Part shown: positions 6,004-59,360 of the stretch, piece after piece
How the letters are laid out: each line of letters starts with the position of its first letter
Position numbering within the stretch: position 1 is the first letter of the stretch
Assembly (NCBI GenBank): GCA_028715175.1
Contig: JAQUSJ010000001.1
Span: forward strand, 340,550-404,549
Origin: Candidatus Daviesbacteria bacterium
GTDB taxonomy: Bacteria > Patescibacteriota > Microgenomatia > Daviesbacterales > UBA10151
Direction: 5' to 3'
DNA: 64,000 nt
Made by a program: the position numbers and the translations under genes
The notes under the pieces: model-generated
The model's database searches: none
Told to the model about the DNA's origin: nothing
What the model saw: the letters and a program-made list of their open reading frames with translations, nothing else

Positions 6004-6017
6004 CAAGATTTAAGTAT

Positions 6018-7006: not shown

Positions 7007-7510
7007 ATGAAATTAGTTGCAGGGTTTTTTACAATATCCCTTTTTGTAATAATATTTTTTTCTACGCCATTTGATTTAATTTATGCTAATGAGGTTGAGC
7101 AGTTGGGTTTACCAGAAACCACCGTTAATCCCGGTTCGTTTTATTACTCTTTCAAAAGATTATTTGAAAAAGGTCAAGAAAAATTACTTTTTTTCCAGCA
7201 ATCCAAAAAAAGTTTTTATGAATCTTTAGTAAAAATGAGACTTTCGGAATTAAATTATGTAATTGACAAAAAAGCTTTATCAGAAGTTCAGCGTAGCAGT
7301 GAAAGATTTGCCTATCAAGCGGGTATTCTGACTGAAGAAGTAATAAAACAAAATCAAATTAACGATAAAGAAAATCTGATTAAAGAATTTGATAGGTACA
7401 ACAAATTCCTGTCTAATTTAAGAGATAAATATCCGGCAAATTCTAGTTTTTGGATGTTAGTTCAGCATGATATTAATACCCTAAATATATCATCTAATCG
7501 TTTGAAATAA
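7007..7510 (+). CDS. Small secreted/membrane-anchored helical protein (DUF5667-like motif 'NPGSFYYSFKRLFE')
   Basis: N-terminal hydrophobic signal/anchor, then a motif that resembles the DUF5667 'LPGSPLYFLKR' signature. Confidence 0.4.
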   Translation: MKLVAGFFTISLFVIIFFSTPFDLIYANEVEQLGLPETTVNPGSFYYSFKRLFEKGQEKLLFFQQSKKSFYESLVKMRLSELNYVIDKKALSEVQRSSERFAYQAGILTEEVIKQNQINDKENLIKEFDRYNKFLSNLRDKYPANSSFWMLVQHDINTLNISSNRLK

Positions 7511-42405: not shown

Positions 42406-43998
42406 ATGAAAAAAGATATGGTTGGAGTGTCAGCGGTTATTCCTAGTTTTAACTGTAAAAATAATCTATTTAGATTATTAGATACTTTAAAAAAATCCAG
42501 CTATAAAAATCTGGAAGTAATAGCTGTTGATAATGGTTCCAGAGATAATACTTTATCGGAAGGTATGAAAAAGTATAAATGGGTGAAGTGGGTAGATGCC
42601 GGGGGAAGAAATATCGGTCAGACCGGTTGCTATAACTTAGGAATGGCTTATATTAAAAAGGGGAATCATTTTCTTTATGTAGATTCTGATGTAACCGTGG
42701 AAAAAGAAATGGTTCAAAACTTAGTCACAAAGCTGAACTCTGATTTGAAAATCGGAATTGTCACACCAATGATTCTTTACCTTTCTGATAAGAATTGGGT
42801 TAATCAAGCAGGCGCTTATGTTGATCTTACTACCGGTAAAGTTACAGTAGGCTGGGGATCCAAGAAAAATTTCTTAGAGCCGAAAGAGGTTCAGAATTCC
42901 GGGACCGTAATGTTGATTAGGAATGAAGTTGTAGAAAAAATCGGCGGTTTTGATAACTGGTTTTTGTGTTATTTTGATCCGGATTATTGTTTAAGGGCAA
43001 AAAAAGTAGGCTATGAAATTTGGTATGAACCTAGCGCAGTCTGTTATCATGATCAATCAAAGAATCCTGCTGTTTGGCGGCCTAGGGTATTAAGCAGGGC
43101 TTATTTATTAGGCAGAAACAGAACGCTTTTCATGAGAAGGCACGGAAAGGTTTTTTCAACGTATGTGCTATTTTTACCATTCCTGTTTGGATATTATTTT
43201 GTTGAAGCTGCCAAATTTGGAATTTTTAATAAATGGTTGGAATTAGTGTTAGGTACATTGGTGGGTTTTGTTTATCCTTTAAAAAAAGGAAATTATATAA
43301 CTTTACCGAAAGGAGAAAATTATCCTTCATTTAGTGTCCCAAAAGAAAATTTATTACAAAAGATAACGGTTAAAACTCCATTTTCTTGGAGTTGGTTATT
43401 ACGTAAATTAATTGGAGATCCAAAGACCGTGTTAGATATTGGTTGCGGGGATGGGGCATTAATGAGAACTCTTTCTAAAGAGAAAAATTGGAAAATAGTT
43501 GGTATAGATATTTTTAAAGATTCAGTTATAAAGGCTAAAACTTTAGGCGTGTATGATTCAATTATACAAGGAGATGTCATTGAAGTTTTAAAAAAAATGA
43601 TAACCCAGAGGAATCGTTTTAATACAGTTTTTTGCTCCCAATTAATTGAACATCTAAGCAAAAAAGAGGGGAATAGACTATTGGATTTAATGGATCAACT
43701 TGCTTTGGAAAGAATAGTTGTAACTACACCCAGAGGTTTTGTGGAACAGCGCGAAGAATTTTTAGGTAATAACCACCATCAGCATCATAAATCCGGATGG
43801 ATGATTGAGGATTTTGTATCCAGAGGATATAAAGTCTATGGTTTGGGTCTTTCAGCGGTTTGGAGATATAGTAAGCTAGGTCTGAGTAAGGCAAGAATAC
43901 CTTTTATCTCGTTAGTATCTTACTTAATGTCGCCATTAGTTTATTTTATCCCAGCATTAGGAGAAGGAATTTTGGCTGTTAAAAAAATAAAAAAATGA
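42406..43998 (+). CDS. Bifunctional GT2 glycosyltransferase (N-terminal) + class I SAM methyltransferase (C-terminal) fusion
   Basis: N-terminus 'VSAVIPSFNCKNNL...VDNGSRDNT' and 'VDSDV' DxD. C-terminus 'VLDIGCGDGALM', about 50% identical to the downstream standalone MTase. Confidence 0.7.
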   Translation: MKKDMVGVSAVIPSFNCKNNLFRLLDTLKKSSYKNLEVIAVDNGSRDNTLSEGMKKYKWVKWVDAGGRNIGQTGCYNLGMAYIKKGNHFLYVDSDVTVEKEMVQNLVTKLNSDLKIGIVTPMILYLSDKNWVNQAGAYVDLTTGKVTVGWGSKKNFLEPKEVQNSGTVMLIRNEVVEKIGGFDNWFLCYFDPDYCLRAKKVGYEIWYEPSAVCYHDQSKNPAVWRPRVLSRAYLLGRNRTLFMRRHGKVFSTYVLFLPFLFGYYFVEAAKFGIFNKWLELVLGTLVGFVYPLKKGNYITLPKGENYPSFSVPKENLLQKITVKTPFSWSWLLRKLIGDPKTVLDIGCGDGALMRTLSKEKNWKIVGIDIFKDSVIKAKTLGVYDSIIQGDVIEVLKKMITQRNRFNTVFCSQLIEHLSKKEGNRLLDLMDQLALERIVVTTPRGFVEQREEFLGNNHHQHHKSGWMIEDFVSRGYKVYGLGLSAVWRYSKLGLSKARIPFISLVSYLMSPLVYFIPALGEGILAVKKIKK

Positions 43999-44657
43999 AG
44001 ATAATTGATATTTTAAAACTTAACCTACCCTTTTCTTATATGGGTGTTTTAAGGAATTCTATTGGAAATCCAAAAACAGTATTAGATCTCGGTTGTGGAG
44101 AGGGGACATTAATGCAGTTTGTTTCCGATGGAAAAAACTGGCAGATTACAGGTATCGAGATATATAAAAAAGCCATTGATGTTGCCCGTAAACGCAATGC
44201 TTATTATAAATTAATACAAGGTGACTTATTAAAGACAATCAAAAATAATCTTAAGTCTAAATATGACGTTGTATTTTTTTCCCAAGTAATTGAACATGTG
44301 ACAAGGAGCCAAGGAGAAAAAATATTAGATGAAATTGAAAAATTGGCAAAAAAAAGAATTATTGTAGGAACTCCGAGAGGATTCATGGAGCAGCCTCATG
44401 AATTTTTAGATGGTAATCCTCATCAGGTGCATAAATCTGGTTGGAGCATTGAGGATTTTACTTCAAGAGGATATGAAGTTTATGGAATAGGATTTTGGCC
44501 AATTTGGTCTCATCATGGTTTAGGAAGAAATGCCAGTTTTTTTACAATGATTCTATCAAATGTAATTTCCTATCTAATGTCGCCAATTGTATATTTTTTC
44601 CCGGTTCTCGGGGCAGGTATCATAGCAATAAAAAATAAAGAGAAAAAAAATGACTAA
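43995..44657 (+). CDS. Class I SAM-dependent methyltransferase (paralog of the C-terminal domain of 42406..43998; hydrophobic C-terminal tail)
   Basis: 'VLDLGCGEGTLM'. 'HQVHKSGWSIEDFTSRGYEVYGIG' and the tail 'YLMSPIVYFFPVLGAGIIAIK' mirror the upstream fusion protein. Confidence 0.7.
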   Translation: MKIIDILKLNLPFSYMGVLRNSIGNPKTVLDLGCGEGTLMQFVSDGKNWQITGIEIYKKAIDVARKRNAYYKLIQGDLLKTIKNNLKSKYDVVFFSQVIEHVTRSQGEKILDEIEKLAKKRIIVGTPRGFMEQPHEFLDGNPHQVHKSGWSIEDFTSRGYEVYGIGFWPIWSHHGLGRNASFFTMILSNVISYLMSPIVYFFPVLGAGIIAIKNKEKKND

Positions 44658-45708
44658 AAAATCAGCCAACCCCCCCCTCGTATCTGTAGTCATAGCAAAC
44701 TATAATGGTGAAGCCTATTTGGATACTTGTTTAACATCAGTCTTGAATTCTTACGATTCCTTTTCAGAAATATTAATAATTGACGATGGATCAACGGATA
44801 GAAGTATAGAAATCATTCAAGATTTTAAAAAAAAAGATGATCGCATTTTTTTATTAAAGAATGAAAAAAATATGGGAGCAGCAGCCAGTAGAAATAATGC
44901 CTTGGATAAAGTTAGAGGGGATATTATAGTTTTTCTTGATAATGATACAGAGATTAAAAAAGATTCTATAATGCAGCTTATAAAACCTTTAATAGAGGAT
45001 GAAACAGTTGGTGCAGCACAAGCATTATTGATAGATTTTGAAAATAGAAAGCTAGTCCAGATGGCCGGCGGCCACTTAATTCCTCAAGCAATTTGGTTGA
45101 TGGGTTTTTATGAAAAACAAGAATACAAGAAAGTAAAACACAGAGTACGTCTTACCAATATTATTGCAATTTCTGCAGCACTGGCAGTAAAAAAAGAAGT
45201 TATTGACAAGATCGGATATTTTGATAGCAAGGAGGCGGTTTATACTGAAGATTTAGATTTTTGTTGGAGAATTTGGATTGCAGGATATCGGATAGTTCTT
45301 GCACATAAATCTATAATTTATCATTACACTAAATCGATTACCAAAAGAGCTAATATGGGGGCAAATAAATTTAATATTTATTTTCAACTTGCTAAGAATT
45401 CATTTAGATCAATTATTAAAAACTACGAATTTATCAATACTGTTAGATTTTTACCGACTAGTCTTTTTGTAAATTTAGCGCGAGCAGTTTTAGTTCTTTT
45501 AAGGAGAGGTGATTTATCTGCTTTATCTGCTACCATTTACAGCATCTGGTGGAATTGTAAGAATCTGCCTGATACATTGCATAATCGTACAGAAATTCAG
45601 AGAACCAGAAAGTTTAGTGATAAGAAAATTTTAAATGAGGTTTTTGTTAATGGTAGTTTATTGGATATATACGATAGGAATTACAAGAGTTCAAAACTAC
45701 TATGGTAA
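44650..45708 (+). CDS. Glycosyltransferase family 2
   Basis: 'VSVVIANYNGEAYL...IIDDGSTDRS', 'LDNDT'. Confidence 0.75.
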   Translation: MTKKSANPPLVSVVIANYNGEAYLDTCLTSVLNSYDSFSEILIIDDGSTDRSIEIIQDFKKKDDRIFLLKNEKNMGAAASRNNALDKVRGDIIVFLDNDTEIKKDSIMQLIKPLIEDETVGAAQALLIDFENRKLVQMAGGHLIPQAIWLMGFYEKQEYKKVKHRVRLTNIIAISAALAVKKEVIDKIGYFDSKEAVYTEDLDFCWRIWIAGYRIVLAHKSIIYHYTKSITKRANMGANKFNIYFQLAKNSFRSIIKNYEFINTVRFLPTSLFVNLARAVLVLLRRGDLSALSATIYSIWWNCKNLPDTLHNRTEIQRTRKFSDKKILNEVFVNGSLLDIYDRNYKSSKLLW

Positions 45709-48700
45709 AAAAATTAGATAAATTCCCCATACTTTTTTTCCTGTTTCTTTCCGGAATATTAATATTTTGTTGGTTTAGGTTTGGACTGATGTATGGTGGG
45801 GGAGACACCGGTTTACCTACATACAATCCTCTTTTTACAGCCACCAAGATTGCCAGTAATATCTGGTGGGACTCGTTGGCTCCGGGCATTCCGGTGGCTC
45901 AGGGATTAACCTCGGTTCCGATGCTTTTTCTCTTATCTATCCCCCAGGTATTGGGAGCAAGTCCTGTTGTTATCCAGGCATTGCTGTTTTTTGTGCTTCT
46001 TTTTTTGATGGGTTATGGTATGCACCTTCTGGCTTTGAGTATTTTTGGGAAGCCTAATTATCTTTTAGCTATTTCAGCTGGAGTGTTCTATTTATTTAAT
46101 CCTTATATGATGATTCAGATTTGGCACCGTTTTATTCACAATTCTATGTTTTTTGTGGCTTTTTTGCCTTTTTTGATAATGACTTGGCTATGGTGGATTA
46201 GAAAACGTAGTCCTGTATGTCTATTATTATTCCTTCTGGTGAATTTTTTAGCTGTTTATGTATATGGAACGATTGCCTTTATAGTTCCTGTTTGGACACT
46301 GCTTTTTTTCTTAACTTTACTGGAAGGAGTGGTGCCCTGGAAAGGAAGGAAGAATGCCTTAAGGTTGCTTCTGGCTTTTTTAATTGGTTGTTTTTTTTGG
46401 CTGTTAACCAATAGTTGGTGGCTTATACCTACTTTTAGTGTAAGCCCAGCTCTATTTGCTTCAGTGCATACTACAGATGGCAGTTTAAATACTTTAATGT
46501 CGCTAAGTAATTCATCCATATTGCCTTACACCCTAAGACTTGTTAATCCTTTTTATCTTTACTGGCTTGCTGATTGGGGGAGCATCTATCAAAATCCAAT
46601 TTTCCTGATCATATCTTGGTTGTTTGTACCGGTAGTATTTATTGGTTTTATCAGGGGTTTAAAACAGACACAATATGTGGTATGGAGTCTGCTTCTCTTG
46701 GTAGTAATTTATCTTTCCAAAGGAGCAGCTCCGCCCTTTAATTTTCCCTACATATGGGGATTCTCCCATTTTTTCCCCTTAGGAGTTATCAGGAATCCTT
46801 TTGAAAAGCTGGGAATTATACTACCTCTTGTTTATGCAATTTTATTCTCCGTAGGGTTGCAATATTTGCTTATCACTTCAATCAAATTTATTGGTAAATC
46901 CAAAACCTATTTCCTTTTGATAATTTTTATTTGCCTCCATATGGCTTTTTTCTGGCCTATGTTTGCAGGGAAGTTATTTGGTACTATGGAGAAACAGAAT
47001 TTTGTGGAAGTCCCCCCAAGTTATACGGAAGCCAATAATTGGATTAAACAGGACCTTTCAGGTACAGCGGAAGGTAGAATTTTACATTTACCACTCCCTA
47101 GGTCAGAAAGCGTTACTTACAACTGGGGGTATGGCTACAACGGAGTAGAACCATCTGCCGCTATATTTACCGCACTGCCTTCCATAGCCAGGGGACTGGA
47201 TATTCCCGGGGTCAATGATGCTCTATCAGGACTTTCCCTTATATTTCATAAACCATATGCTGAAAATAATCAGTTTGTTATTTTAAAGATGCTGCAGGAT
47301 TTTAATGTTAAATACATTATTTTACATAAGGATATCCGGTGGTTAGGAGGAGAGCTCTATAATCCTCTGGAAACTGAAACAGTTCTTGATAACTTAGACT
47401 TCCTGGATCGGGAAACAACCTTTGGAGACCTGACCATCTACAAACTAAAGGATTCCTATTTTAGCCCAAAGATAAAATTAATAAATAATATCCAATATTA
47501 TATCTCACCGGAAAACAACACTTATTGGCCTTTGTGGTTGTCCTCTGATAATGTTGAGCTGCTATCTTCCTTAAAGACTGATACAAAAAATCTACTTATT
47601 AAATATGGAACGGAGATGATAGTATCTCCGGAAATTGTTTTTAAATATATACCTCAAGAAGTAATTAGAGAAAAATTATTAGTAGAAATGCCAGTTGTTA
47701 GAATTTTACCTGATTCTCCACTTTATCCATCTGTAAGATTAAAAGAAAATCTTCAATATTCTAGCTTACCGGCAGTTGAGAAATTTTCTTTTAAGGTAAC
47801 CTTAGCTGGTAAGAGATTAATTGAATGTTATCTTCTTAAAGAAAAAGGATCAGCTAAATCGATCATACCGCAACTTAGGGAATATCAACAAATGTTGCCA
47901 GAAATTAAGGAAGGAGTAGAGCTGAGAGTAAGTGGAAAGGAAGGTGTAAAAGAGATTTCCATTAATTTTATTTTAGCCCGTCATCTGGCTACCCTCAAAC
48001 TTATTGGGGAGAAAACTAATAATCAAGAAAAAATAGTCGCTGAAGAAGTTTTTAATAAATTAATTAATTTCCTTAAGGATACTAATGTTGTTCCGAATTC
48101 TTCTATAATAGAAGGAGAGAATTTACCTAATGTTGATCGCTTAATATCAAAATTCAATCTTCCATTTTCGGGTAAATATGAATTATTGCAAGCTCATCAG
48201 CAAATTAAGAATATTTATCCAAACAAGCTAGATACAAATAGGTTTCAGATAAATAACGAATTAAAGAAGTCCACAGGATCGCTTAAGGGTGATTTTATAT
48301 CCTATGGATTATTTGATTTGCCCGAAGGGTTTAATGAGATAAGTTTTAACTCTATTCCTTCAATCAATTTAGCTAAAATTACAGACAGTTTCACAAAAGG
48401 GAATGTGAAAAAAGCCAACGATGAGATTGAACTTAACTCAGGCTTGCATGACTCAAGTTATATAGATATAAATGTAGATCCCGTTTATGGAGGAAATTGG
48501 TATCGACTAACTTTTGACTCTTGGATTAAATTAGGTAATAGATTTAGAATTCAAATTCTTCAGGATATAGATCCTTATAATCCTATAAATCCAACAGAGA
48601 AATTGCCTCTTTACGATAGTGATTTTTCTAAAGATCCTTATATCAACCATTGGGTGAGTCAAACGTATAATTTTCATATTAGTCCTACAACTACAAAAGT

Positions 48701-49235
48701 TATTATACGCTTAGAGGTTGAACCTTGGGATGGCTGTACAGTTACTCAAAGTTCCAAGAAGTTATGTATGAATAAAGATTTTAGTTATCAATTTGAACGA
48801 TTAAGTCAAGTGACGTTAAGAAATATAAGAGTAGTTACATTTTTAACTAATCCGCTATTTTTACAATCAAAATTATCAGAACCAATTAATACATTTGCGG
48901 GAGAAATTAACTTTATTCAAAAAAATATTGTTTCTTATTCAGGAAAAGTAAGAATAAGCAAGTCCACATGGATGTTATTTAAGGAATCATTTGACCCCGG
49001 TTGGGAATTGTCGCTTATAAGAAATAAAGAGATTTACAAACCTAGCCAACATTTGATTGCTAATTTATTTGCTAATGTATGGCTTATTGAGCAACCGGGC
49101 GATTATGATTTTGTTTTAAAATATAGTCCTCAAAAGTTTATTAAAGTAGGTATGGTATTTGCTGGTTTAGGATTGGTTATAGTTTTAATATTTGTAGTGG
49201 GATATAATTTTCGAAGACTAATTTTCAAGAAATGA
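45702..49235 (+). CDS. Giant AftD/DUF3367-like GT-C membrane glycosyltransferase candidate (1177 aa), copy A of a duplicated pair
   Basis: N-terminal polytopic domain with 'GGGDTGLPTYNPLF...NIWWDSLAPGIP' and 'IRNPFEKLG' motifs, large C-terminal ectodomain, terminal TM helix. The first ~530 codons are nucleotide-identical to 49589..52615. Confidence 0.55.
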   Translation: MVKKLDKFPILFFLFLSGILIFCWFRFGLMYGGGDTGLPTYNPLFTATKIASNIWWDSLAPGIPVAQGLTSVPMLFLLSIPQVLGASPVVIQALLFFVLLFLMGYGMHLLALSIFGKPNYLLAISAGVFYLFNPYMMIQIWHRFIHNSMFFVAFLPFLIMTWLWWIRKRSPVCLLLFLLVNFLAVYVYGTIAFIVPVWTLLFFLTLLEGVVPWKGRKNALRLLLAFLIGCFFWLLTNSWWLIPTFSVSPALFASVHTTDGSLNTLMSLSNSSILPYTLRLVNPFYLYWLADWGSIYQNPIFLIISWLFVPVVFIGFIRGLKQTQYVVWSLLLLVVIYLSKGAAPPFNFPYIWGFSHFFPLGVIRNPFEKLGIILPLVYAILFSVGLQYLLITSIKFIGKSKTYFLLIIFICLHMAFFWPMFAGKLFGTMEKQNFVEVPPSYTEANNWIKQDLSGTAEGRILHLPLPRSESVTYNWGYGYNGVEPSAAIFTALPSIARGLDIPGVNDALSGLSLIFHKPYAENNQFVILKMLQDFNVKYIILHKDIRWLGGELYNPLETETVLDNLDFLDRETTFGDLTIYKLKDSYFSPKIKLINNIQYYISPENNTYWPLWLSSDNVELLSSLKTDTKNLLIKYGTEMIVSPEIVFKYIPQEVIREKLLVEMPVVRILPDSPLYPSVRLKENLQYSSLPAVEKFSFKVTLAGKRLIECYLLKEKGSAKSIIPQLREYQQMLPEIKEGVELRVSGKEGVKEISINFILARHLATLKLIGEKTNNQEKIVAEEVFNKLINFLKDTNVVPNSSIIEGENLPNVDRLISKFNLPFSGKYELLQAHQQIKNIYPNKLDTNRFQINNELKKSTGSLKGDFISYGLFDLPEGFNEISFNSIPSINLAKITDSFTKGNVKKANDEIELNSGLHDSSYIDINVDPVYGGNWYRLTFDSWIKLGNRFRIQILQDIDPYNPINPTEKLPLYDSDFSKDPYINHWVSQTYNFHISPTTTKVIIRLEVEPWDGCTVTQSSKKLCMNKDFSYQFERLSQVTLRNIRVVTFLTNPLFLQSKLSEPINTFAGEINFIQKNIVSYSGKVRISKSTWMLFKESFDPGWELSLIRNKEIYKPSQHLIANLFANVWLIEQPGDYDFVLKYSPQKFIKVGMVFAGLGLVIVLIFVVGYNFRRLIFKK
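45755..47335. repeat. Direct repeat copy 1 (1581 bp, apparently 100% identical to 49639..51219; offset 3884 bp)
   Basis: Side-by-side comparison of several sequence stretches (e.g. 45781-45900 vs 49665-49784; 47101-47160 vs 50985-51044). The internal shadow ORFs in the six-frame track are also identical. Identity breaks at 47336 (CCGGTGG vs TGATTGG). Confidence 0.85.
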
Positions 49236-49576
49236 GAAGTCGTATCTATTCAATATTAAAGTCAGTTCTTTTTTTTACTATCTCCTTTGTTGTATTTTAT
49301 ATTCTTGAATATGGATTTACTTTTAATCTGTGGGATAAGTTATTAAGTCCTTTTTTACTTTCAGGGCTTATGATAGTAATGTTTTTAAAACCTAGCACTA
49401 AGCGGTGTATGCTAGTTTTGGTTGGTGTTTGTTTCGTAATAATGATTTTGGCATACTTTTTTAATTTTCTAGATTTTTCTAATAGGCTTAGCAGTTTCGG
49501 ATTTAGTCTGTTGATAGTGACAATTTTTTTGTATCTTCCCCAAATTATCAAAGAAGGTTATATCAAAAAATTCTAA
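49232..49576 (+). CDS. Small 4-TM membrane protein (114 aa), possibly a GtrA-like flippase accessory
   Basis: Hydrophobicity pattern only. Sits between the duplicated giant genes with an ATGA start overlap. Confidence 0.4.
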   Translation: MRSRIYSILKSVLFFTISFVVFYILEYGFTFNLWDKLLSPFLLSGLMIVMFLKPSTKRCMLVLVGVCFVIMILAYFFNFLDFSNRLSSFGFSLLIVTIFLYLPQIIKEGYIKKF

Positions 49577-49588
49577 CTGATATTGAGA

Positions 49589-52500
49589 ATGAAGAAATCA
49601 ATTATTATCCCTCTGTTGTTCTTCCTGTTTTTGAGTGCAATATTAATATTTTGTTGGTTTAGGTTTGGACTGATGTATGGTGGGGGAGACACCGGTTTAC
49701 CTACATACAATCCTCTTTTTACAGCCACCAAGATTGCCAGTAATATCTGGTGGGACTCGTTGGCTCCGGGCATTCCGGTGGCTCAGGGATTAACCTCGGT
49801 TCCGATGCTTTTTCTCTTATCTATCCCCCAGGTATTGGGAGCAAGTCCTGTTGTTATCCAGGCATTGCTGTTTTTTGTGCTTCTTTTTTTGATGGGTTAT
49901 GGTATGCACCTTCTGGCTTTGAGTATTTTTGGGAAGCCTAATTATCTTTTAGCTATTTCAGCTGGAGTGTTCTATTTATTTAATCCTTATATGATGATTC
50001 AGATTTGGCACCGTTTTATTCACAATTCTATGTTTTTTGTGGCTTTTTTGCCTTTTTTGATAATGACTTGGCTATGGTGGATTAGAAAACGTAGTCCTGT
50101 ATGTCTATTATTATTCCTTCTGGTGAATTTTTTAGCTGTTTATGTATATGGAACGATTGCCTTTATAGTTCCTGTTTGGACACTGCTTTTTTTCTTAACT
50201 TTACTGGAAGGAGTGGTGCCCTGGAAAGGAAGGAAGAATGCCTTAAGGTTGCTTCTGGCTTTTTTAATTGGTTGTTTTTTTTGGCTGTTAACCAATAGTT
50301 GGTGGCTTATACCTACTTTTAGTGTAAGCCCAGCTCTATTTGCTTCAGTGCATACTACAGATGGCAGTTTAAATACTTTAATGTCGCTAAGTAATTCATC
50401 CATATTGCCTTACACCCTAAGACTTGTTAATCCTTTTTATCTTTACTGGCTTGCTGATTGGGGGAGCATCTATCAAAATCCAATTTTCCTGATCATATCT
50501 TGGTTGTTTGTACCGGTAGTATTTATTGGTTTTATCAGGGGTTTAAAACAGACACAATATGTGGTATGGAGTCTGCTTCTCTTGGTAGTAATTTATCTTT
50601 CCAAAGGAGCAGCTCCGCCCTTTAATTTTCCCTACATATGGGGATTCTCCCATTTTTTCCCCTTAGGAGTTATCAGGAATCCTTTTGAAAAGCTGGGAAT
50701 TATACTACCTCTTGTTTATGCAATTTTATTCTCCGTAGGGTTGCAATATTTGCTTATCACTTCAATCAAATTTATTGGTAAATCCAAAACCTATTTCCTT
50801 TTGATAATTTTTATTTGCCTCCATATGGCTTTTTTCTGGCCTATGTTTGCAGGGAAGTTATTTGGTACTATGGAGAAACAGAATTTTGTGGAAGTCCCCC
50901 CAAGTTATACGGAAGCCAATAATTGGATTAAACAGGACCTTTCAGGTACAGCGGAAGGTAGAATTTTACATTTACCACTCCCTAGGTCAGAAAGCGTTAC
51001 TTACAACTGGGGGTATGGCTACAACGGAGTAGAACCATCTGCCGCTATATTTACCGCACTGCCTTCCATAGCCAGGGGACTGGATATTCCCGGGGTCAAT
51101 GATGCTCTATCAGGACTTTCCCTTATATTTCATAAACCATATGCTGAAAATAATCAGTTTGTTATTTTAAAGATGCTGCAGGATTTTAATGTTAAATACA
51201 TTATTTTACATAAGGATATTGATTGGAAGAAAATGGTACTGGAGGATCCTGAGCAGGAACAAATGATTTTAGATGCTCTTTCTTATCTGGAGAAAAAAAG
51301 CATGTATGATAATTTGATTATTTATGAAGTTGTACCCGAACATTTCCAATCTAAAATTATTATTTCCGGTAATTTTGAATTAGCTTCATTAAATTCAAAT
51401 AGCACTATTTTTTGGCCCTGGATAATAGCAGATGTAAATAAAGATATGGTTACTGCTATAGATCAAAAGTCACAAACTCAGATTTTAGATAAAACCAAAG
51501 GTAAGATAATCTTTCCTACCCAAAGCTCTTTTTTCCGTCAAGAAAATCCTTTTTCAGGCATTAAGCATGTTACTCGATTTAATATCCCTGCCTCCGGTAC
51601 ATACGAGCTGGTATTAACCAATGCCTCAACCGGTGGTGCTTATCTAAATGGGTTTAATAAATTAGACGTGTTAATTGATGAGATGCAGAATTCTTTAACA
51701 GGGATTATTAAAGGTCAGTTGGTTTCATTTGGCAGCCTTAATCTTAATGCAGGTAACCATGAAATTATTTTTCTACCTCTGGAATCAATTAACTTATTCC
51801 CAAGTTTTAATTTAGTTCAAGCATCTGAAAATGTTAAATTATTAGATAATTCGACAATTCAGATTAGCGCTTCAGCAAAAAGTCTGCAATTTATCGCCGG
51901 GGAGCTTTTAAAAGTATACGGCGGGGATGCCTATAACATAAGTTTTGAATATAGATTCGCAGGGGAAAAGGGATTTTATCTTTTAATGGTACAGGATACT
52001 GACTTGGATAAAATGAATCCTGCGATTGCGGAATTGAATAAGCTCGAATCGGATAAATGGCAGCAATATAATAATATTTTCAACCCTCTTAGACTAAATA
52101 CTCAAAAATCAGCATTGGAGCTTGCCTTTAATCCGGAAACAAGCCAGCTTTTGGATACCCAGTCGACTTTGCAGATACGCAATATAAAAGTAGAGAGGCT
52201 ATTTAATAATCTGATTTTCCTAAGACAGGAAAGCACAGAGCAAAATAAAATTCTTAGTGGATTTTTGGATAATTATAAAAGAATAGATGTCGGACTTTAT
52301 GAGGGGAAATTAAAGGTAACTAAGCCGGTTTTGCTTATTTTTAAAGAAACATATCACCCGGGATGGAAACTTGAATTATCGGAAAATATCTCTCAGGGAA
52401 AGAAATTTAGAGTCGAAAACCATTATTTGGGAAACTTATATGCGAATGCCTGGTATATAGATAAATCCGGAGATTACAATTTTAAAATTATTTTTGAGCC

Positions 52501-52615
52501 TCAAAGTTATGTTAACTTAGGAATATTTACTGCAATATCTTCTTTGGTTGGAATAATTTTGTTAGAAGTTTATAACCACTTTGCCAAAACCCGTTCTCTT
52601 AGGGAGGGGATGTAG
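49589..52615 (+). CDS. Giant AftD/DUF3367-like GT-C membrane glycosyltransferase candidate (about 1008 aa), copy B of the duplicated pair
   Basis: Identical N-terminal domain to copy A through 'ILHKDI'. After that the ectodomain is only distantly similar, e.g. 'YNPLETETVLDNLDFLDRETTFGDLTIYKL' vs 'EDPEQEQMILDALSYLEKKSMYDNLIIYEV'. The C-terminal '...GDYNFKIIFEPQSYVNLG' + TM helix motif is conserved. I prefer the ATG at 49589; a TTG at 49583 is also in frame. Confidence 0.55.
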   Translation: MKKSIIIPLLFFLFLSAILIFCWFRFGLMYGGGDTGLPTYNPLFTATKIASNIWWDSLAPGIPVAQGLTSVPMLFLLSIPQVLGASPVVIQALLFFVLLFLMGYGMHLLALSIFGKPNYLLAISAGVFYLFNPYMMIQIWHRFIHNSMFFVAFLPFLIMTWLWWIRKRSPVCLLLFLLVNFLAVYVYGTIAFIVPVWTLLFFLTLLEGVVPWKGRKNALRLLLAFLIGCFFWLLTNSWWLIPTFSVSPALFASVHTTDGSLNTLMSLSNSSILPYTLRLVNPFYLYWLADWGSIYQNPIFLIISWLFVPVVFIGFIRGLKQTQYVVWSLLLLVVIYLSKGAAPPFNFPYIWGFSHFFPLGVIRNPFEKLGIILPLVYAILFSVGLQYLLITSIKFIGKSKTYFLLIIFICLHMAFFWPMFAGKLFGTMEKQNFVEVPPSYTEANNWIKQDLSGTAEGRILHLPLPRSESVTYNWGYGYNGVEPSAAIFTALPSIARGLDIPGVNDALSGLSLIFHKPYAENNQFVILKMLQDFNVKYIILHKDIDWKKMVLEDPEQEQMILDALSYLEKKSMYDNLIIYEVVPEHFQSKIIISGNFELASLNSNSTIFWPWIIADVNKDMVTAIDQKSQTQILDKTKGKIIFPTQSSFFRQENPFSGIKHVTRFNIPASGTYELVLTNASTGGAYLNGFNKLDVLIDEMQNSLTGIIKGQLVSFGSLNLNAGNHEIIFLPLESINLFPSFNLVQASENVKLLDNSTIQISASAKSLQFIAGELLKVYGGDAYNISFEYRFAGEKGFYLLMVQDTDLDKMNPAIAELNKLESDKWQQYNNIFNPLRLNTQKSALELAFNPETSQLLDTQSTLQIRNIKVERLFNNLIFLRQESTEQNKILSGFLDNYKRIDVGLYEGKLKVTKPVLLIFKETYHPGWKLELSENISQGKKFRVENHYLGNLYANAWYIDKSGDYNFKIIFEPQSYVNLGIFTAISSLVGIILLEVYNHFAKTRSLREGM
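49639..51219. repeat. Direct repeat copy 2 (1581 bp, identical to 45755..47335)
   Basis: See copy 1. Confidence 0.85.
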
Positions 52616-52689: not shown

Positions 52690-54333
52690 ATGAAATCCTT
52701 CCGGTTATTTGTTATTTATCCTTGGCTTTTCCCCGCGATCATATTTACCATCCTCGTTCTTCTGGGTGCCAACATGCATCCACTGTGGGGTGATGAGGCA
52801 GAAACAGCACTTTTTGGAAGAAACGTCTTGAAATACGCTCTCCCAAAAGGATGGGATGGAGTGAATATCATGGGAATTTATGATGCAGTGGTTTTGGATA
52901 AGGATTTGATAAATCATACCTCTCCTTGGGTACAATATTACCTGGTAGCTATCTCTTTTAAGCTTTTTGGTGAATCTTCTTTTGCTGCCCGTTTACCCTT
53001 TATCATTTTGTCTATTCTATCCATTCCTTTAATGTATATTCTAAGTTTTAAACTTACTCAAAATAAGTTTATCTCATTTCTTACAGTTTTAATCCTATCA
53101 ATATCCGTACCCTTTATCCTTTTTGCATATCAGGCCAGGTATTATTCTGTTAGCTCTTTTGCAAGTATATTACTTGTTTTAGCTACACTGCATATTTTAG
53201 AGAAAAAGCTTTGGCCAAAGTTACTTTTTGTATTTGCTTCGGTTTTGTTTTTCTATGGAAATTATGTTTCTTTTCTGGCTTTTTATATATCACTATTTTT
53301 GAGCTTTTCCATTAATCTCTTGGTAAAAAAAGAATTCTTCATAAGAATTAAAAGATTCACTTTGCTTTTTTCAGGATTGAGTATCATCATAGCGGTTCTG
53401 ACAGCGCCCTGGTTTTTTATCCTTAAACCACTTGATTCCAGAGGTGAAATTATATTTCCTTCTTTTTTTAAGGCGGTAGTTAATCTTTTCTCTTTAGGGT
53501 TTTCTATGTATAACAACAATAATACTTTACCGTTAGGTTTTGCGATTTTTGTGGTGGCTTTCTTGATAGTCAAGATCTATAAGAAAAAACCTGATCCTGC
53601 TTTAACTTTTGTAGCACTTCTTTCGTTTTTCTTCCTTTTGACCATGGTTGTTTTTTCAACGATGGCCGTAGCGGACGCAAGGTTTATAGATAATCGTTAT
53701 ACAACTCCCGTATTTTATTTTATGTTTATTCTTTCAGCGTATATTATAAATGTCTTCTGGCAATGGAAAAAAATAATAGGGCTTTTGGTGCTCATTTTAT
53801 ATGCCGCTACTAATTTCTTTACTTTTCAACCTTTGAGGAGTTTCCCGCAGGAGTACTTACATGAACTAATTTATTCTTATCTTACCCCTGATAAAGTAGT
53901 GGCAGATTATTTAAAAAAGTATGCCAAAGATGGAGATACCGCCTTTGTCAATTTAGATCGCGATCATGAACCACTAATTTTTCACCTAAAAGATAAAATT
54001 CGCTTTGTTAACAGAGTAACTCCTACCAATCAGCGGATCTTCCCCGAAAATCTCAATATCATTCCCGAATATATTTACTCTTATCTTGATGAACCCGATT
54101 GGGTTATTTTATATAGCAAGAGGGGAAATGATAGAAGTTTTTTAACCTTTGGTTACAGGGGAGTTTTTCCCTTGGGACTTGCGCAAACTGTTGATTTAAA
54201 AAATCACTACGAAGAAATAGTACTGCCAGTATATTTTTCAGATTTATCACGGCCTGAGATAGACCTTCGGTCTTTTTCAGAAATAAAACCAGAGTATAAT
54301 GATCAAGTATTTATATATAAAAAAAGATCGTAA
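52690..54333 (+). CDS. ArnT/PMT-like GT-C glycosyltransferase (GT39/GT83-type, lipid-linked-sugar dependent)
   Basis: 547 aa polytopic protein. The first extracytoplasmic loop has 'WGDEAETALFGRNVLKY', matching the DE(A) catalytic motif of ArnT/PMT_2 families. Confidence 0.65.
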   Translation: MKSFRLFVIYPWLFPAIIFTILVLLGANMHPLWGDEAETALFGRNVLKYALPKGWDGVNIMGIYDAVVLDKDLINHTSPWVQYYLVAISFKLFGESSFAARLPFIILSILSIPLMYILSFKLTQNKFISFLTVLILSISVPFILFAYQARYYSVSSFASILLVLATLHILEKKLWPKLLFVFASVLFFYGNYVSFLAFYISLFLSFSINLLVKKEFFIRIKRFTLLFSGLSIIIAVLTAPWFFILKPLDSRGEIIFPSFFKAVVNLFSLGFSMYNNNNTLPLGFAIFVVAFLIVKIYKKKPDPALTFVALLSFFFLLTMVVFSTMAVADARFIDNRYTTPVFYFMFILSAYIINVFWQWKKIIGLLVLILYAATNFFTFQPLRSFPQEYLHELIYSYLTPDKVVADYLKKYAKDGDTAFVNLDRDHEPLIFHLKDKIRFVNRVTPTNQRIFPENLNIIPEYIYSYLDEPDWVILYSKRGNDRSFLTFGYRGVFPLGLAQTVDLKNHYEEIVLPVYFSDLSRPEIDLRSFSEIKPEYNDQVFIYKKRS

Positions 54334-54476
54334 TTTTAAGCTTGGAATTGACCCTTGTGTGTAATAATTAGTACACTGAAGCTATAAATATTATCAAAAG
54401 TTATAAGTTATTAATAATAGTCCTATTTGTTGCTGCTATATTACGACTTTGGAATTTAGGAGGTATACCTCCCCAT

Positions 54477-55955
54477 TTGAGAAACGATGAAGCATCTTTT
54501 GGATATGATGCATATTCAATCTTAAGTACCGGAAGAGATCAACACGGTGAATTTTTACCAATTCTTTTTAAATCATTCGGTGACTTCAAACCTGGTTTTT
54601 ATATTTATTTGACAGTACCTTTTGTAGCTATGCTGGGATTGAATGAATGGGCAATCAGGTTGCCTGCTGCAATATCAGGAATACTAGGTGTTTATCTCTT
54701 GTATCTAGTAGTGTGGAATTTATTCAAAAATCAGAAAATTGCTTTAGCCTCTGCTTTTTCCTTATCAATCTCTCCTTGGCATATAGCTTTTTCCAGAGGT
54801 GCCTGGGAAGCTCAAGTGACTGTAACCTTAGTTTTAGCCGGGCTATTATTTTTTATAAAAGCTTTAAATCAAAATAACAAGTATCTAGTATTCTCAACTG
54901 GATTTTTTGGGGTAAGTCTTCTAATGTCTCACGGAGCAAAACCAGCAATTCCACTTTTACTGTTGTCATTTCTACCGGTTTACTGGAAAAAGATTATAAA
55001 AATCCCCTTTAGAATAGTATTACTTAGTAGTTTTTTGTTCATTATGTTGTCTTTACCCATTATTTTTTCCTTTTTTAATGGTAAAAGCACTCGTGTGGCT
55101 TTCTTATTGTTTACGAATAAATATCAAAATGCAAAGGTTGAAACGATAGCTCGTGATTTTTTAAATAATTGGTCTAATCACTATAGTTTGCCAATTTTAT
55201 TTATTAAAGGAGATGGTAATCCTCAACATTCTGCTGCCGACTTTGGTGCGTTTATTACTTTAGATATTGTATTTCTATTTTTAGGTTTAAAAACTCTTGT
55301 CAATTTTAAAGATGTAAAAGGAGAAGCTAAAGTTTTCATACTTATCCTGTTGATTTTAGCTCCCTTATCATCAACACTTACTTCAGAAGGCGTTAATTTT
55401 GAGCGTTACTTAATGTTTTTCATACTCATAAATATTATCCTTGGTCTAGGAATAAGCAATTTTAAAAGGAATCTGTTTTGGGGAATATTTTTGTTACTTT
55501 ACCTTTTCTCTTTTTTACTTTTTCTTGATGCTTACTTTATTCATACTTCTGCAAAAAACGGCGCTTGGCAAACTGGTTATAAAGAGATTGTTCAATTCAT
55601 CACACCAATACAAGAAAATTTTCAAAAAATATATATACCTCAAGGAGGTGACCAGCCTTATATTTTTTTCCTGTTGTATCAAAGGTATTCTCCTGAAAAG
55701 TTTCAAGCTTTTTCAGCTTCTGTGAATATTCCCAATGGTTCAGGTACAGGGATGGATTATATTTCTAAATTAGATAATATTGAATTTGTCGACCTTAATA
55801 AGTTCAATCCACCCTTAAATCAATCGTTTCTTATCGTATTGCCTGTAAATAATACTTACAAATTTGAAGGTTTTCTAAAATCTATACATGGAGTCAAAGA
55901 CCCGATTGGATTTCCAATATATAAGATTGATGAGTATGTTCCTAAAAGACTATGA
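54477..55955 (+). CDS. ArnT/PMT-like GT-C glycosyltransferase; N-terminus probably longer than annotated (non-canonical or eroded start)
   Basis: 'LRNDEASFGYDAYSIL' DEA motif. The in-frame upstream sequence encodes the expected first TM helix + 'LRLWNLGGIPP' but has no ATG/GTG/TTG before the stop at 54369-71. Confidence 0.6.
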   Translation: MRNDEASFGYDAYSILSTGRDQHGEFLPILFKSFGDFKPGFYIYLTVPFVAMLGLNEWAIRLPAAISGILGVYLLYLVVWNLFKNQKIALASAFSLSISPWHIAFSRGAWEAQVTVTLVLAGLLFFIKALNQNNKYLVFSTGFFGVSLLMSHGAKPAIPLLLLSFLPVYWKKIIKIPFRIVLLSSFLFIMLSLPIIFSFFNGKSTRVAFLLFTNKYQNAKVETIARDFLNNWSNHYSLPILFIKGDGNPQHSAADFGAFITLDIVFLFLGLKTLVNFKDVKGEAKVFILILLILAPLSSTLTSEGVNFERYLMFFILINIILGLGISNFKRNLFWGIFLLLYLFSFLLFLDAYFIHTSAKNGAWQTGYKEIVQFITPIQENFQKIYIPQGGDQPYIFFLLYQRYSPEKFQAFSASVNIPNGSGTGMDYISKLDNIEFVDLNKFNPPLNQSFLIVLPVNNTYKFEGFLKSIHGVKDPIGFPIYKIDEYVPKRL

Positions 55956-56446
55956 AAAAAGTTTTCATCTATATCATTTTAATTTTTACCATTTTATGGC
56001 TGATTCTATTTTTATTTGCTTATAAGCGAAGCTTGAACGAAAACTATCAATTTAGTGCCGATACTATATGGAAGATAGAACAACAAAGAAGAGAGCACAC
56101 CTACCTATTCCCATTTGTTGCAAAATTTATTCATAATAAAGGCTTCTATTTTAGTTATACGGTTTTTGAAAACTATTTATCTTATTATTCTCCATCAATC
56201 TTTTTCTGCTGCAATCAACCTCTAGTGCTAGAGTTAGTAATTTTACTAATGTTCTATGGGGGAGCTTTTATACTTCTGCGGGAAGTTTCAAAACTAGTCA
56301 AGGCAATTCTATTTTGGATTTTAGCGTATCCTATTTTTCTTTCTTTGATGTTATGGCCACCGTCGCTTGTGTTAGCGCTTCCGATTATTATTCCTGCATC
56401 AGGAATTTTGGTATACAGCCTGTATAAAGAAATAAAGTTCAAATAA
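55952..56446 (+). CDS. Small polytopic membrane protein (164 aa) of unknown function
   Basis: Hydrophobic ORF coupled (ATGA) to the upstream ArnT-like gene. Confidence 0.4.
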   Translation: MKKVFIYIILIFTILWLILFLFAYKRSLNENYQFSADTIWKIEQQRREHTYLFPFVAKFIHNKGFYFSYTVFENYLSYYSPSIFFCCNQPLVLELVILLMFYGGAFILLREVSKLVKAILFWILAYPIFLSLMLWPPSLVLALPIIIPASGILVYSLYKEIKFK

Positions 56447-56497: not shown

Positions 56498-56671
56498 ATG
56501 AAACTTTTAAGCAAGCACATTTTTTTAATAGGATTATTTTTTGTTTTATTAAGCGGTCTATTCATTCTTTTAAATCACTCGGGATTTGCATTAAGATTTT
56601 TAGGTTTTTCATTTTGGATTATGGCAGGAGGGACGTTACTCTATATACTAGAGTTAAAAAATGAAAGGTAA
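56498..56671 (+). CDS. Unlisted small ORF (57 aa, 2 predicted TM helices)
   Basis: Reads ATG at 56498 ... TAA at 56669-71 and overlaps the start of the next gene by 11 nt. TATAAT-like box at 56485-90. Below the ORF-track length cutoff. Confidence 0.25.
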   Translation: MKLLSKHIFLIGLFFVLLSGLFILLNHSGFALRFLGFSFWIMAGGTLLYILELKNER

Positions 56672-59360
56672 ATTTGTAGTAATAGTTTTATTACTTCTAT
56701 TATTTGTGGTTTACTGGCAATGGTTTTTACCGGGGTTAAAAGTTGCAAATGATTTTCCAATAGTTTCCGAATCTTTACTTAAATCTTCTATAAATTTTCC
56801 TTATGCCTGGTCAGAAAATGGTGCCGAAGGGTTAGGGGAGTATTCAACATTTTTTCTTTGGTCCTGGCCACTGTCATTTTTATGGGGTATTCTCGCAAAT
56901 ACTGGTTTAAGTTTCATAATCCTGGAAAGAGTTCTTTTTTTAATGCCATTTTTGCTTATAGGGTGTGTTGGAATTTGGAAATTTTGCGGAAGTATTAAAT
57001 TAACTAATGCTGCTAAATTTATTTCATCCTTTTTTTATTTAACAACTACTTATATTCTCTTAGTTATTGATGGCGGACAATTATCCATAGCGCTTGCTTA
57101 TGCCTGGTTTCCTGTAGCCTTCTTAGCAGTGGAAAAATCTATTAAGGGGGGGTTTAATAAGAAAGTTCTGGCGGGTTTGGCAATCTCAATTTTAGGATTT
57201 TTGGATTTTAGATTTATTTACGTTTTATTTTTACTAAGTTCAGCACTATTTTTTTATCAATTATTTTTAGATTTTAAAAAAAAATACTCATGGTATTTAG
57301 ATTGGATAAGTAGCGGAGTAATTATTGCCATAATAATAACGGGATTGAATATTTATTGGTTATTGCCTTTATTTAAAGCTCCAATCTCCTCCAATACTTA
57401 TGCTTTTTTTACTCAAACTTCTTTCTTAAGCTTTATAAATTTAGGTCATAGCATATTACTTCTTGCGCCTCACTGGTTTAAAAATATTTTTGGAAATATC
57501 ACAACTTTACGTCCTGAATTTATCTTTATCCCGATACTGGTATTCCTAGCACCCATTCTGCGACCTAAAAATCCGGTTGTTGGATTCTGGTTATTAATTG
57601 CTGTGTTTTCCATCTTTTTAACTAAAGGCGCTGAAGGTCCTCTACCAGGAATCTACCCTTGGCTTTTTTCACATATACCAGGTTTTTCATTATTCCGCGA
57701 TTCAACAAAGTTTTTCTTTTTAGGAGCGCTTTCGTATAGTATCTTACTAGGAATAACTACAGATGAGATTCTTAAAAAGACAATTAAATTCCCAAAATTT
57801 AAAATATTTTTTTTAATATTACTATCTAGCTATCTTATATTTCTGATAAGGCCGATTTGGCTTGGACAAACGACCGGTACATTTTCTCATCCTCTATTTC
57901 AACAGGAGTTTACAGGACTTAGTCGATTTATAGAAAGCGATAAAAGTTTCAGTCGGGTATTTTGGATTCCGTTTTTCCCCTCTTTAGGTTATTCAAGTCA
58001 AACTCATCCTAGGGTAGAAGCTGCCCGTTTGGTTCAGAAGAGATCTTTTGCTATTGGTACAAGCGGTACTTATGAAACATTTAATTTTTTAAGGGAAGCA
58101 CCATACATGGGAGAGATTTTTGATGTTGCAGGAATAGGCTATGTTTCTTATCCTTATCTTGATCCGAGGAGAGATAATGTGTACCCGGATAATATAAAAT
58201 ATTACTATACTTTTCTAGACCAGCTTTTAAAAAAATCATGGTTTTCAAAGGTTGAAAATTCAAAAGTTCCACTTCTTAAGACAAAAGAGCACCAGGATAG
58301 ATTTTTTGTTACATCAAACATCTGGTGGGTGATAGGGTCTGATAATCTCTACAACGAATCAACAAAAAGTGCCAAATTAAAACTTTCTAATAATGCTTTA
58401 ATCTTTGCTGAAGAATATCCCGGAATGGGTATAAAGCTTAACGATTTTCCTGAAGCTAAAATTGTACTAAATAGCAAGACAGATTTAGATTTAGCGGCGA
58501 GCTTCATAAAGCCTCTAAATTATATTTTTCCTGCTAAGAATTTAGATTTTGCTCCCAATAAATCCGGTTGGTGGAAAAGGGAGACAGTAGATTTAATTTC
58601 GTGGAGAAGTTTTTTGCAGGAGGAATATGGAATTGATAATCAGGATTTTGATTTAGGAGGCGGATGGGCGATAGGAGAGGGAGACAGGCAATTGACAATT
58701 GACAATTTACAATTTAAAAAAGAAAAAATACTTTTAGCTAGAGTGATGGAAAGCGCAAGAAGCGGAAAGTTGAGTTTTTATCAAAGAAATCAAAAGGTAG
58801 GAGAAGTTTCAACAAAGATTAATGGAGATGCTAATGTCAGATGGTTTGAGGTAGGTCAGTTGATACAAGATGGGGGAGAACTAGGAATAACTTCTTCTGG
58901 AGATATTAATGTAGTTAATGCATTAGCGGTTTTGGACAAAGCTGAATGGGTAAGCTATCAGGATAAAGCTGAAAAGTTGCAGGAGAGGATAGTAAATTTT
59001 GATGAAAAGAATGCGGAAGGTAATAGCGATCCCACTATTGCCTACCAGAAAATAAACCCCACAAAATACAAAGTTATTGTAAGCCATTTAACCAAGCCGT
59101 CACTGATGATATTTTCCCAAAATTATGACGGACTTTGGAAAATTAACGGAAGTCAGACTCCCCTGCCGGTGTATAGTTTGTTGAATGGATTTAGGATAGA
59201 AGGGGATGGAGAGTATATTGTGGAATTTGAAGTACAGAAATATGTTTATTTGGGCTTAATTATCACTGGAGTCACGTTAACGATCTTACTTATATTTTTG
59301 TTAAGATTGCCACGCCGTTTGCAGACTGAAGATCCTGTAAGGGCTCGTTCCTCGCAATGA
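56661..59360 (+). CDS. Giant polytopic membrane protein with large ectodomain and C-terminal TM anchor, distant member of the AftD-like family
   Basis: 899 aa. N-terminal 'FPYAWSENGAEGLGE' loop, 'FRDSTKFF' (cf. RNPFEKLG), C-terminal 'GDGEYIVEFEVQKYVYLGLIITGVTL' matching the family C-terminal motif. Confidence 0.45.
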   Translation: MKGKFVVIVLLLLLFVVYWQWFLPGLKVANDFPIVSESLLKSSINFPYAWSENGAEGLGEYSTFFLWSWPLSFLWGILANTGLSFIILERVLFLMPFLLIGCVGIWKFCGSIKLTNAAKFISSFFYLTTTYILLVIDGGQLSIALAYAWFPVAFLAVEKSIKGGFNKKVLAGLAISILGFLDFRFIYVLFLLSSALFFYQLFLDFKKKYSWYLDWISSGVIIAIIITGLNIYWLLPLFKAPISSNTYAFFTQTSFLSFINLGHSILLLAPHWFKNIFGNITTLRPEFIFIPILVFLAPILRPKNPVVGFWLLIAVFSIFLTKGAEGPLPGIYPWLFSHIPGFSLFRDSTKFFFLGALSYSILLGITTDEILKKTIKFPKFKIFFLILLSSYLIFLIRPIWLGQTTGTFSHPLFQQEFTGLSRFIESDKSFSRVFWIPFFPSLGYSSQTHPRVEAARLVQKRSFAIGTSGTYETFNFLREAPYMGEIFDVAGIGYVSYPYLDPRRDNVYPDNIKYYYTFLDQLLKKSWFSKVENSKVPLLKTKEHQDRFFVTSNIWWVIGSDNLYNESTKSAKLKLSNNALIFAEEYPGMGIKLNDFPEAKIVLNSKTDLDLAASFIKPLNYIFPAKNLDFAPNKSGWWKRETVDLISWRSFLQEEYGIDNQDFDLGGGWAIGEGDRQLTIDNLQFKKEKILLARVMESARSGKLSFYQRNQKVGEVSTKINGDANVRWFEVGQLIQDGGELGITSSGDINVVNALAVLDKAEWVSYQDKAEKLQERIVNFDEKNAEGNSDPTIAYQKINPTKYKVIVSHLTKPSLMIFSQNYDGLWKINGSQTPLPVYSLLNGFRIEGDGEYIVEFEVQKYVYLGLIITGVTLTILLIFLLRLPRRLQTEDPVRARSSQ

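Follow-up and report, generated by a model that had tools for sequence, protein, structure and literature searches.

Recent, segment-restricted gene conversion as the probable source of an exact 1.58-kb repeat in two tandem AftD-like glycosyltransferase genes of Candidatus Daviesbacteria

An exact repeat spans the membrane module of two adjacent genes

We analyzed a 64,000-nucleotide (nt) stretch of DNA (hereafter the window; 33% GC) from a metagenome-assembled genome of Candidatus Daviesbacteria, a member of the Patescibacteria or candidate phyla radiation (CPR), in which two adjacent genes encoding giant AftD-like GT-C glycosyltransferases, A and B, share an exact repeat of 1.58 kb. The repeat is very probably explained by recent, recurrent, and segment-restricted gene conversion between old tandem paralogs. 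Gene A (45702..49235, forward strand; 1,177 amino acids [aa]; NCBI MDD5415775.1) and gene B (49589..52615, forward strand; 1,008 aa from its ATG, with a TTG upstream at 49583; NCBI MDD5415776.1, PHE48_02080) are located on one contig of 743,708 bp, and the open reading frames (ORFs) of both are intact. Below, the upstream giant of such a pair is called gene 1 (A in the window) and the downstream giant gene 2 (B in the window).

In an in-register comparison, positions 45755..47335 (aa 18-545 of A) and 49639..51219 (aa 17-544 of B), both on the forward strand, formed one unbroken identical run of 1,581 nt with 0 mismatches at an offset of 3,884 nt, as claimed in the initial annotation of this DNA. 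Self-BLASTN of the repeat against the whole window verified the exact boundaries and the identity and revealed two copies only, and a repeat-finder run also recovered the same pair. Identity per 100 nt in the in-register comparison was 26% upstream of the repeat, 75% in the block with its 5' edge, 100% throughout, and 61, 43, 35, and 33% in the blocks downstream, reaching the background level within about 100 nt on either side. Synonymous sites were all identical across the 527 codons of the repeat. Given the GC content of the window and the unconverted gene 1/gene 2 background of about 70% nt identity in related genomes, an exact run of this length is far beyond chance.

The repeat encodes the entire transmembrane (TM) GT-C module, with helices within aa 7-422, and most of the soluble GT-C domain, of which it includes the first ~115 aa, in agreement with the proposal that it covers the whole N-terminal polytopic half of both genes. 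Its 5' edge coincides with the start of A/B homology, around codon 18. The 3' edge was expected to be a sharp boundary between identity and divergence, and the fall is indeed abrupt; however, in the AlphaFold2 (AF2) models it falls at the conserved LHKD motif, inside the beta-strand 536-542 of the soluble GT-C domain, rather than at a domain border, and this domain runs on to about aa 600 in the models of both proteins. Beyond the ILHKDI sequence only distant similarity was found, in line with the initial annotation: the outer parts of A and B differ in length and are 26% identical at the amino acid level over 419 aa (BLASTP), and they retain a common C-terminal motif and TM helix.

N-terminal domains group by genome and C-termini group by position

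We compared the window with the syntenic loci L001 (GCA_030689965.1), L002 (GCA_964415615.1), L003 (GCA_041643115.1), L004 (GCA_964649615.1), and L064 (ENA ERZ28563625 scaffold_34), and a codon alignment was built from 10 genes, namely gene 1 and gene 2 of the window and of L001-L004. The common gene order in L001-L004 and L064 is GT1, GT2, methyltransferase, GT2, giant 1, a 113-117-aa ORF, giant 2, (a 55-aa ORF), a ~900-aa paralog, and Wzx. The interval between giant 2 and the ~900-aa paralog holds nothing, a ~55-aa ORF, or, in the window, three extra genes, and the gene of ~890-905 aa downstream of the pair is conserved in all syntenic loci.

Nucleotide identity of the N-terminal domains (N-domains) between gene 1 and gene 2 of the same genome was 100, 84, 100, 85, and 82% in the five aligned genomes, compared to 69-78% between genomes, so that in this segment the within-genome paralogs are closer to each other than to their between-genome orthologs in all five. 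In contrast, the flanks mostly keep orthology by position. The last ~97 codons were 57-72% identical among gene-1 copies and 54-67% among gene-2 copies, but 47-57% between positions (nt); it is only at L002 and L004, the most divergent loci, that these ranges meet. The C-terminal ~100 aa of B grouped with the other gene-2 copies (64-67% nt), and the ectodomain of A was orthologous to that of gene 1 of L001 (81% nt). The first ~10 residues are position-specific as well (MVK[KR]... in gene 1 and M[KL]K... in gene 2). This comparison of orthologous loci, in which N-domains group by genome and C-termini by position, corroborates the earlier suggestion that recent gene conversion or recombination homogenized one domain. 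Since the N-domains are alike within each genome and the ends are position-specific, we concluded that the duplication predates these genomes and that the N-domain was homogenized independently and recently in each of them.

The tract ends are lineage-specific. Uninterrupted identity of giant 1 with giant 2 extends at most over 1,744 nt in L064, 1,674 nt in L002 (gene positions 28-1701), 1,581 nt in the window (54-1634), 680 nt in L003 (52-731), and 628 nt in L004 (155-782), and 71 nt in L001, where the copies were 83% identical over 1,758 nt. Per 30-codon block, L003 and L004 showed 100% identity within the tract and ~59-87% (average ~70%) beyond it, and L001 was patchy (73-92%). Gene conversion has recurred independently in at least seven related genomes.

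Several other contigs end at the edges of the repeat, which gives the interpretation independent support. The contig of L005 (GCA_028712705.1), a strain 98.4% identical to the window, begins exactly 127 nt before the 3' repeat edge, which is typical of a k-mer overlap at a graph branch. An A-type copy was not among the protein matches for this sister-strain assembly, but the k=127 contig break suggests that it may carry two identical copies. Within its first 67 nt, L005 departs from the window sequence at 11 sites, against ~1.5% elsewhere (Poisson p 6e-6); the N-domain was therefore replaced in one of the two strains after their split. Likewise, the first 121 nt of L047 exactly match the end of its own gene-2 N-domain, and the contigs of L059 and L065 close with 77 and 62 nt, respectively, that repeat the beginning of their gene-1 N-domain without a mismatch.

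A further contig, L042 (Ga0209515_10014966), carries three giants in a row. Its repeated unit (1..2560 versus 3941..6489; 77.9% over 2,580 nt) takes in the C-terminus of one giant and the small ORF and reaches into the N-domain of the following giant, and positions 3941..4043 recur without change as the initial 103 nt of the contig. C-terminal segments may therefore be homogenized too.

A and B share the fold of AftD

The description of A and B as GT-C/AftD-like genes in the initial annotation was backed by structural comparison. The AF2 model of A (predicted local distance difference test [pLDDT] 89.8, predicted template modeling score [pTM] 0.87), searched against the PDB with Foldseek, gave the mycobacterial arabinofuranosyltransferase AftD (6w98_A) as the top match (E 9.7e-18); the AftD structures 6w98, 6wby, and 6wbx (E 1e-17 to 7e-17) were followed by the oligosaccharyltransferases STT3 and PglB (E 1e-5 to 7e-4). 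The model displays the GT-C fold, with a polytopic TM module (helices within aa 7-422) and an extracytoplasmic alpha/beta soluble domain (~430-600). The DUF5667 region forms a helical bundle at 675-793; beta-sandwich modules come next, at 813-1141, and a single TM helix (1142-1176) closes the protein. The model of B (pLDDT 82.4) has the architecture of A minus the helical bundle, with all-beta modules at aa 658-969 and a single C-terminal TM helix at 972-1007. The beta-sandwich modules in the soluble parts of both models resemble carbohydrate-binding modules (CBMs), and partial Foldseek matches include CBM4 and beta-sandwich domains of GH101. Relatives at 36-68% identity pass the PF11847 (GT-C_AftD) model over aa ~40-580, with 26-40 bits versus a cutoff of 26.

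In AftD, the essential residues K39, D41, E251, K361, and D474 surround a site where the TM and soluble GT-C domains meet, the glycan acceptor is bound by three CBMs, and a C-terminal helical bundle binds the acyl carrier protein (ACP). AftD (PDB 6W98) is the best structural match and shares with A and B the N-terminal polytopic GT-C module and soluble domain followed by beta-sandwich carbohydrate-binding-like modules. It also has a conserved acidic residue after TM1; in the family of A and B, D35 of the YGGGD(T/V)G motif directly after TM1 (≥90% conserved in 106 homologs) may be the counterpart of D41 in AftD. In contrast, A and B are about 11% identical to AftD in sequence, with no sequence-level PDB match even with a profile; their models have a single C-terminal TM helix each and lack the multi-helix ACP-binding TM bundle; A contains a helical DUF5667 insertion; and their host is a CPR bacterium without known arabinan. 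Fold and transitive homology thus support the assignment of A and B as AftD-like GT-C enzymes rather than as demonstrated arabinosyltransferases.

Position-specific parts, ectodomain forms, and other paralogs

The A-specific part (47336..49235, forward strand) comprises the rest of the soluble GT-C domain, the helical bundle, the CBM-like beta-sandwich modules, and the C-terminal TM helix (49125..49229), and has a Pfam match to DUF5667 at aa 668-767 (47703..48002; E 1.3e-6). The same domain is found in a stand-alone 167-aa protein encoded elsewhere in the window (7007..7510). The B-specific ectodomain (51220..52615, forward strand) consists of beta-sandwiches and the C-terminal TM helix (52502..52609). 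Between the two genes, ORF analysis confirmed the small membrane-protein ORF proposed earlier (49232..49576, forward strand; 114 aa), which is kept at the same position, with 113-117 aa, in all syntenic loci. It had no family match in Pfam or NCBIfam. Its exact sequence was absent from the protein collection searched and the accessions of A and B are consecutive, which suggests that the ORF is not annotated in the NCBI record.

Among gene-1 proteins, two deeply divergent ectodomain forms were found: the A type in the window and in P0002-P0004, and another form, ~25-30% identical to A at the amino acid level, in P0005-P0007, P0010, and P0012. P0005, from a 5,480-bp ENA contig, is a mosaic with an N-domain 72-92% identical to that of A, 90% identity over the last ~50 aa, and a ~500-aa middle part of the alternative type, suggesting ectodomain replacement between conserved flanks. 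The ectodomain of B is 20-40% identical to other gene-2 ectodomains. Only two relatives of it were found (99% and 82% identity), both at contig ends, and L006 has an 86.5% identical ortholog of it at the same position.

The two further AftD-like paralogs that the initial annotation had placed on either side of the pair are present: the third paralog, a 901-aa protein (31196..33901, forward strand) 28.7% identical to A/B at the amino acid level over 540 aa of the N-domain (E 2e-45), and the more distant fourth paralog, an 899-aa protein (56661..59360, forward strand) with 24% identity over 285 aa (E 2e-7). Their suggested role as a reservoir for recombination did not hold: neither gave a blastn match to the repeat, the longest exact matches being 14 and 12 nt, and for lack of nucleotide similarity both were rejected as conversion donors.

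Proposed mechanism and alternative explanations

We propose that A and B are old tandem paralogs within a very large surface-glycan biosynthesis island, and that a recent non-reciprocal homologous recombination (intrachromosomal gene conversion) replaced the 5' 1.58 kb of one gene with that of the other. The tract has its 5' edge at the start of A/B homology and its 3' edge in the highly conserved LHKD stretch, and in related genomes the same process has been repeated independently over tracts of other lengths. The GT-C module therefore evolves in concert within each genome, and position-specificity is retained by the CBM-like ectodomains and C-termini, by the initial ~10-17 codons, and by the small ORF between the genes. 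The machinery would probably be RecA-type homologous recombination. Both enzymes may take the same lipid-linked donor via the shared module and act on different acceptors via their differing ectodomains; homogenization would be largely a self-reinforcing by-product of tandem similarity, possibly favored by a need to match the same donor or partner. Unequal crossing-over was ruled out, because the unique segment between the repeats is kept and orthologous, and non-reciprocal conversion fits this arrangement.

An exact repeat in a metagenome-assembled genome could be an assembly artifact, produced if the assembler duplicated or collapsed a repeat or joined the alleles of two strains head to tail. 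The related contigs come, judging by their names, from SPAdes and MEGAHIT short-read assemblies, a graph edge passed twice is identical by construction, and the sister assembly failed to resolve the region. Nevertheless, L001 has the same gene order with N-domains only 83% identical, too different to collapse, and the two-gene architecture is therefore safe from this objection; the distinct position-specific 5' ends and flanks of both copies are conserved across genomes; exact tracts of differing length occur in five independent assemblies, from different assemblers judging by contig names; and strain alleles at one locus would make a bubble rather than a loop through the small ORF. We therefore regard an artifact as very unlikely. 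Marginally less so, though still quite improbable, is a scenario in which one gene was recently duplicated in tandem and one ectodomain was then replaced by horizontal transfer. The B ectodomain is only 44-46% identical (nt), a background level, to the gene-2 ectodomains of L001-L004, and the P0005 mosaic shows that ectodomain replacement occurs in these proteins. However, the two-gene layout, the small ORF, and the position-specific ends are common to genomes with N-domains 22-31% apart (nt), which makes the duplication older than the splits of those genomes; moreover, the C-terminal part of B sides with the gene-2 copies, and its ectodomain has the L006 ortholog in the same position. Purifying selection might also have preserved a critical catalytic domain with no recombination involved. 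This would account for the N-domain being the most conserved part of the family, but is practically untenable: orthologous N-domains differ by 22-31% (nt), the portions of this domain that escaped conversion in L003 and L004 show ~70% identity, and the identity of every synonymous site in the repeat refutes purifying selection alone.

Programmed variation, in which the 1.6-kb direct repeats would serve reversible deletion or amplification or a switching of ectodomain cassettes, had been raised by the initial annotation as a cassette-like mechanism, and we consider it improbable, if less so than the explanations above. Direct repeats of such size recombine readily in bacteria, surface glycan loci are typically subject to variation, and deletion or amplification via the repeat is mechanistically possible. 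The deeply divergent ectodomain alleles at each position, with the A-like termini kept around a different ectodomain in P0005, also agree with a cassette-like arrangement. In contrast, the window scans gave no sign of a dedicated apparatus: no site-specific recombinase, integrase, or transposase was found by Pfam scan of window ORFs of at least 100 aa, no inverted repeats of 40 nt or more were found in 30-64 kb, and there were no truncated silent donor cassettes, A and B being complete ORFs. Both full-length genes are retained in every complete syntenic locus examined, and no deletion or chimeric junction was seen in the contigs, which cannot reveal minority variants. Ectodomain variation thus seems cassette-like on an evolutionary scale only, with nothing pointing to a programmed mechanism.

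Returning to recurrent gene conversion, several observations weigh against this explanation or narrow it. A de Bruijn graph writes the shared edge of a looped direct repeat twice and sparse differences between the copies could collapse, and the 100% identity may thus be "99+%". Conversion may have run from A to B or from B to A: when the final 217 nt of the repeat were compared among orthologs, the AENNQ and ASNP types of a one-codon indel did not follow gene position. The look-up of recombination genes covered the window. Tandem paralogs in wider Daviesbacteria and Woesebacteria (L011-L041) are only ~65-70% identical (nt) over short stretches (~65-68% in the more distant Daviesbacteria loci), and concerted evolution is confined to one subclade rather than extending to the whole family. 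On the enzymatic side, neither A and B nor the other window paralogs matched PF11847 even at E≤10; A and B reached no Pfam or NCBIfam GT-C model at permissive thresholds, DUF5667 in A being the only match; and no PDB sequence match was obtained for them by phmmer or with a 106-sequence family profile. The link to AftD runs only through the fold search and the Pfam matches of relatives, and the activity, donor, and acceptor of A and B are entirely inferred.

More tentatively, and as a rather improbable reading in our view, the tandem genes might form a modular system of surface-glycan diversification, combining a continually homogenized catalytic module with exchangeable ectodomain alleles. In such a system at least two deeply divergent ectodomain forms per position would be swapped by recombination in the conserved N- and C-terminal flanks, and through the 1.6-1.7-kb direct repeats one of the enzymes could be lost and regained. 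If this were true, strains of these reduced-genome bacteria (CPR members are commonly regarded as host-dependent) would differ, and perhaps switch, in envelope glycan structure.

Comparison with known systems

Gene conversion is a known process, of which this case is a new example. Nothing relevant on AftD or on gene conversion in Patescibacteria was found in the literature searched, nor was a report of the process in AftD-like enzymes. In mycobacteria, the adjacent genes embC-embA-embB encode GT-C paralogs that carry C-terminal carbohydrate-binding domains and differ in their acceptor roles. They resemble A and B as tandem GT-C paralogs; however, the Emb paralogs are, as far as is known, diverged along their whole length, and domain-restricted homogenization is not known among them. 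Gene conversion keeps the within-genome paralogs tufA/tufB and the rRNA operons nearly identical, but there whole genes of equivalent copies are homogenized, in contrast to one module of two functionally distinct genes in A/B.

The same pattern is known from the Helicobacter pylori outer-membrane protein pairs babA/babB, homA/homB, and sabA/sabB, in which one segment is similar within a strain and others cluster between strains, a pattern attributed to RecA-dependent intragenomic gene conversion yielding chimeras (PMC3960876). Like A/B, babA/babB show segment-restricted within-genome similarity in paralogous surface-related genes. Unlike A/B, which are tandem enzymes with a homogenized 5' catalytic module, the H. 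pylori pairs encode adhesins, are not linked on the chromosome, and are homogenized in the 3' segment; conversion there also switches a functional middle region and is tied to phase variation.

Genomic context of the gene pair

The 64-kb window constitutes one glycan-biosynthesis island and roughly 9% of the 744-kb contig. Nearly all window ORFs with a Pfam match are assigned to glycan synthesis, including many GT2 and GT1 glycosyltransferases, about ten S-adenosylmethionine (SAM) methyltransferases, sugar epimerases/dehydratases, an aminotransferase, an asparagine synthase, a carbamoyltransferase, and PMT_2-like GT-Cs. Wzx-type flippases are encoded at 818..2092 and 59392..60651. The Rfam scan of the window gave no match.

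The three genes between B and the ~900-aa paralog (52690..56446) encode two PMT_2-like GT-C proteins, one with a weak and one with a clear Pfam match, and a 164-aa ORF. They are present in the window and in L005 and absent from L001-L004 and L064, and hence they represent an insertion within the island. Between L005 and the window, divergence was 3-6% at 57593..58593 (in the fourth paralog) and at 59593..61593 (Wzx, GT2, and methyltransferase genes), and under 1% in most other 500-nt blocks, a patchiness that suggests recombination imports into the island.

An unannotated family of 510-632-aa proteins with no Pfam match is encoded at 10513..12411, 13588..15333 (reverse strand), 15336..17144 (reverse strand), and 27699..29231. 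The tandem pair at 13588 and 15336 is 40.7% identical over 600 aa, and both members are related to those at 10513 and 27699; these proteins may be further membrane glycan enzymes. Finally, in a GT2-methyltransferase fusion (42406..43998), the C-terminal methyltransferase half (aa 316-530) is 46.5% identical to the stand-alone methyltransferase encoded directly downstream (43995..44657), an arrangement that represents a partial tandem duplication or fusion.

Implications

In these uncultivated CPR bacteria with reduced genomes, concerted evolution restricted to one domain is seen cleanly and in several replicates. Homologous recombination in these organisms thus suffices to remove every difference over 1.6-1.7 kb, and has done so more than once. 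Such repeats break short-read assemblies at predictable places, and clustering at 90% identity can hide one of the genes, as happened with B, which sat behind a partial representative protein. Phylogenies and orthology calls based on the N-domain will mislead for these glycosyltransferases. The pattern suggests a division of labor in which one shared catalytic or donor module would be combined with different acceptor-targeting ectodomains.

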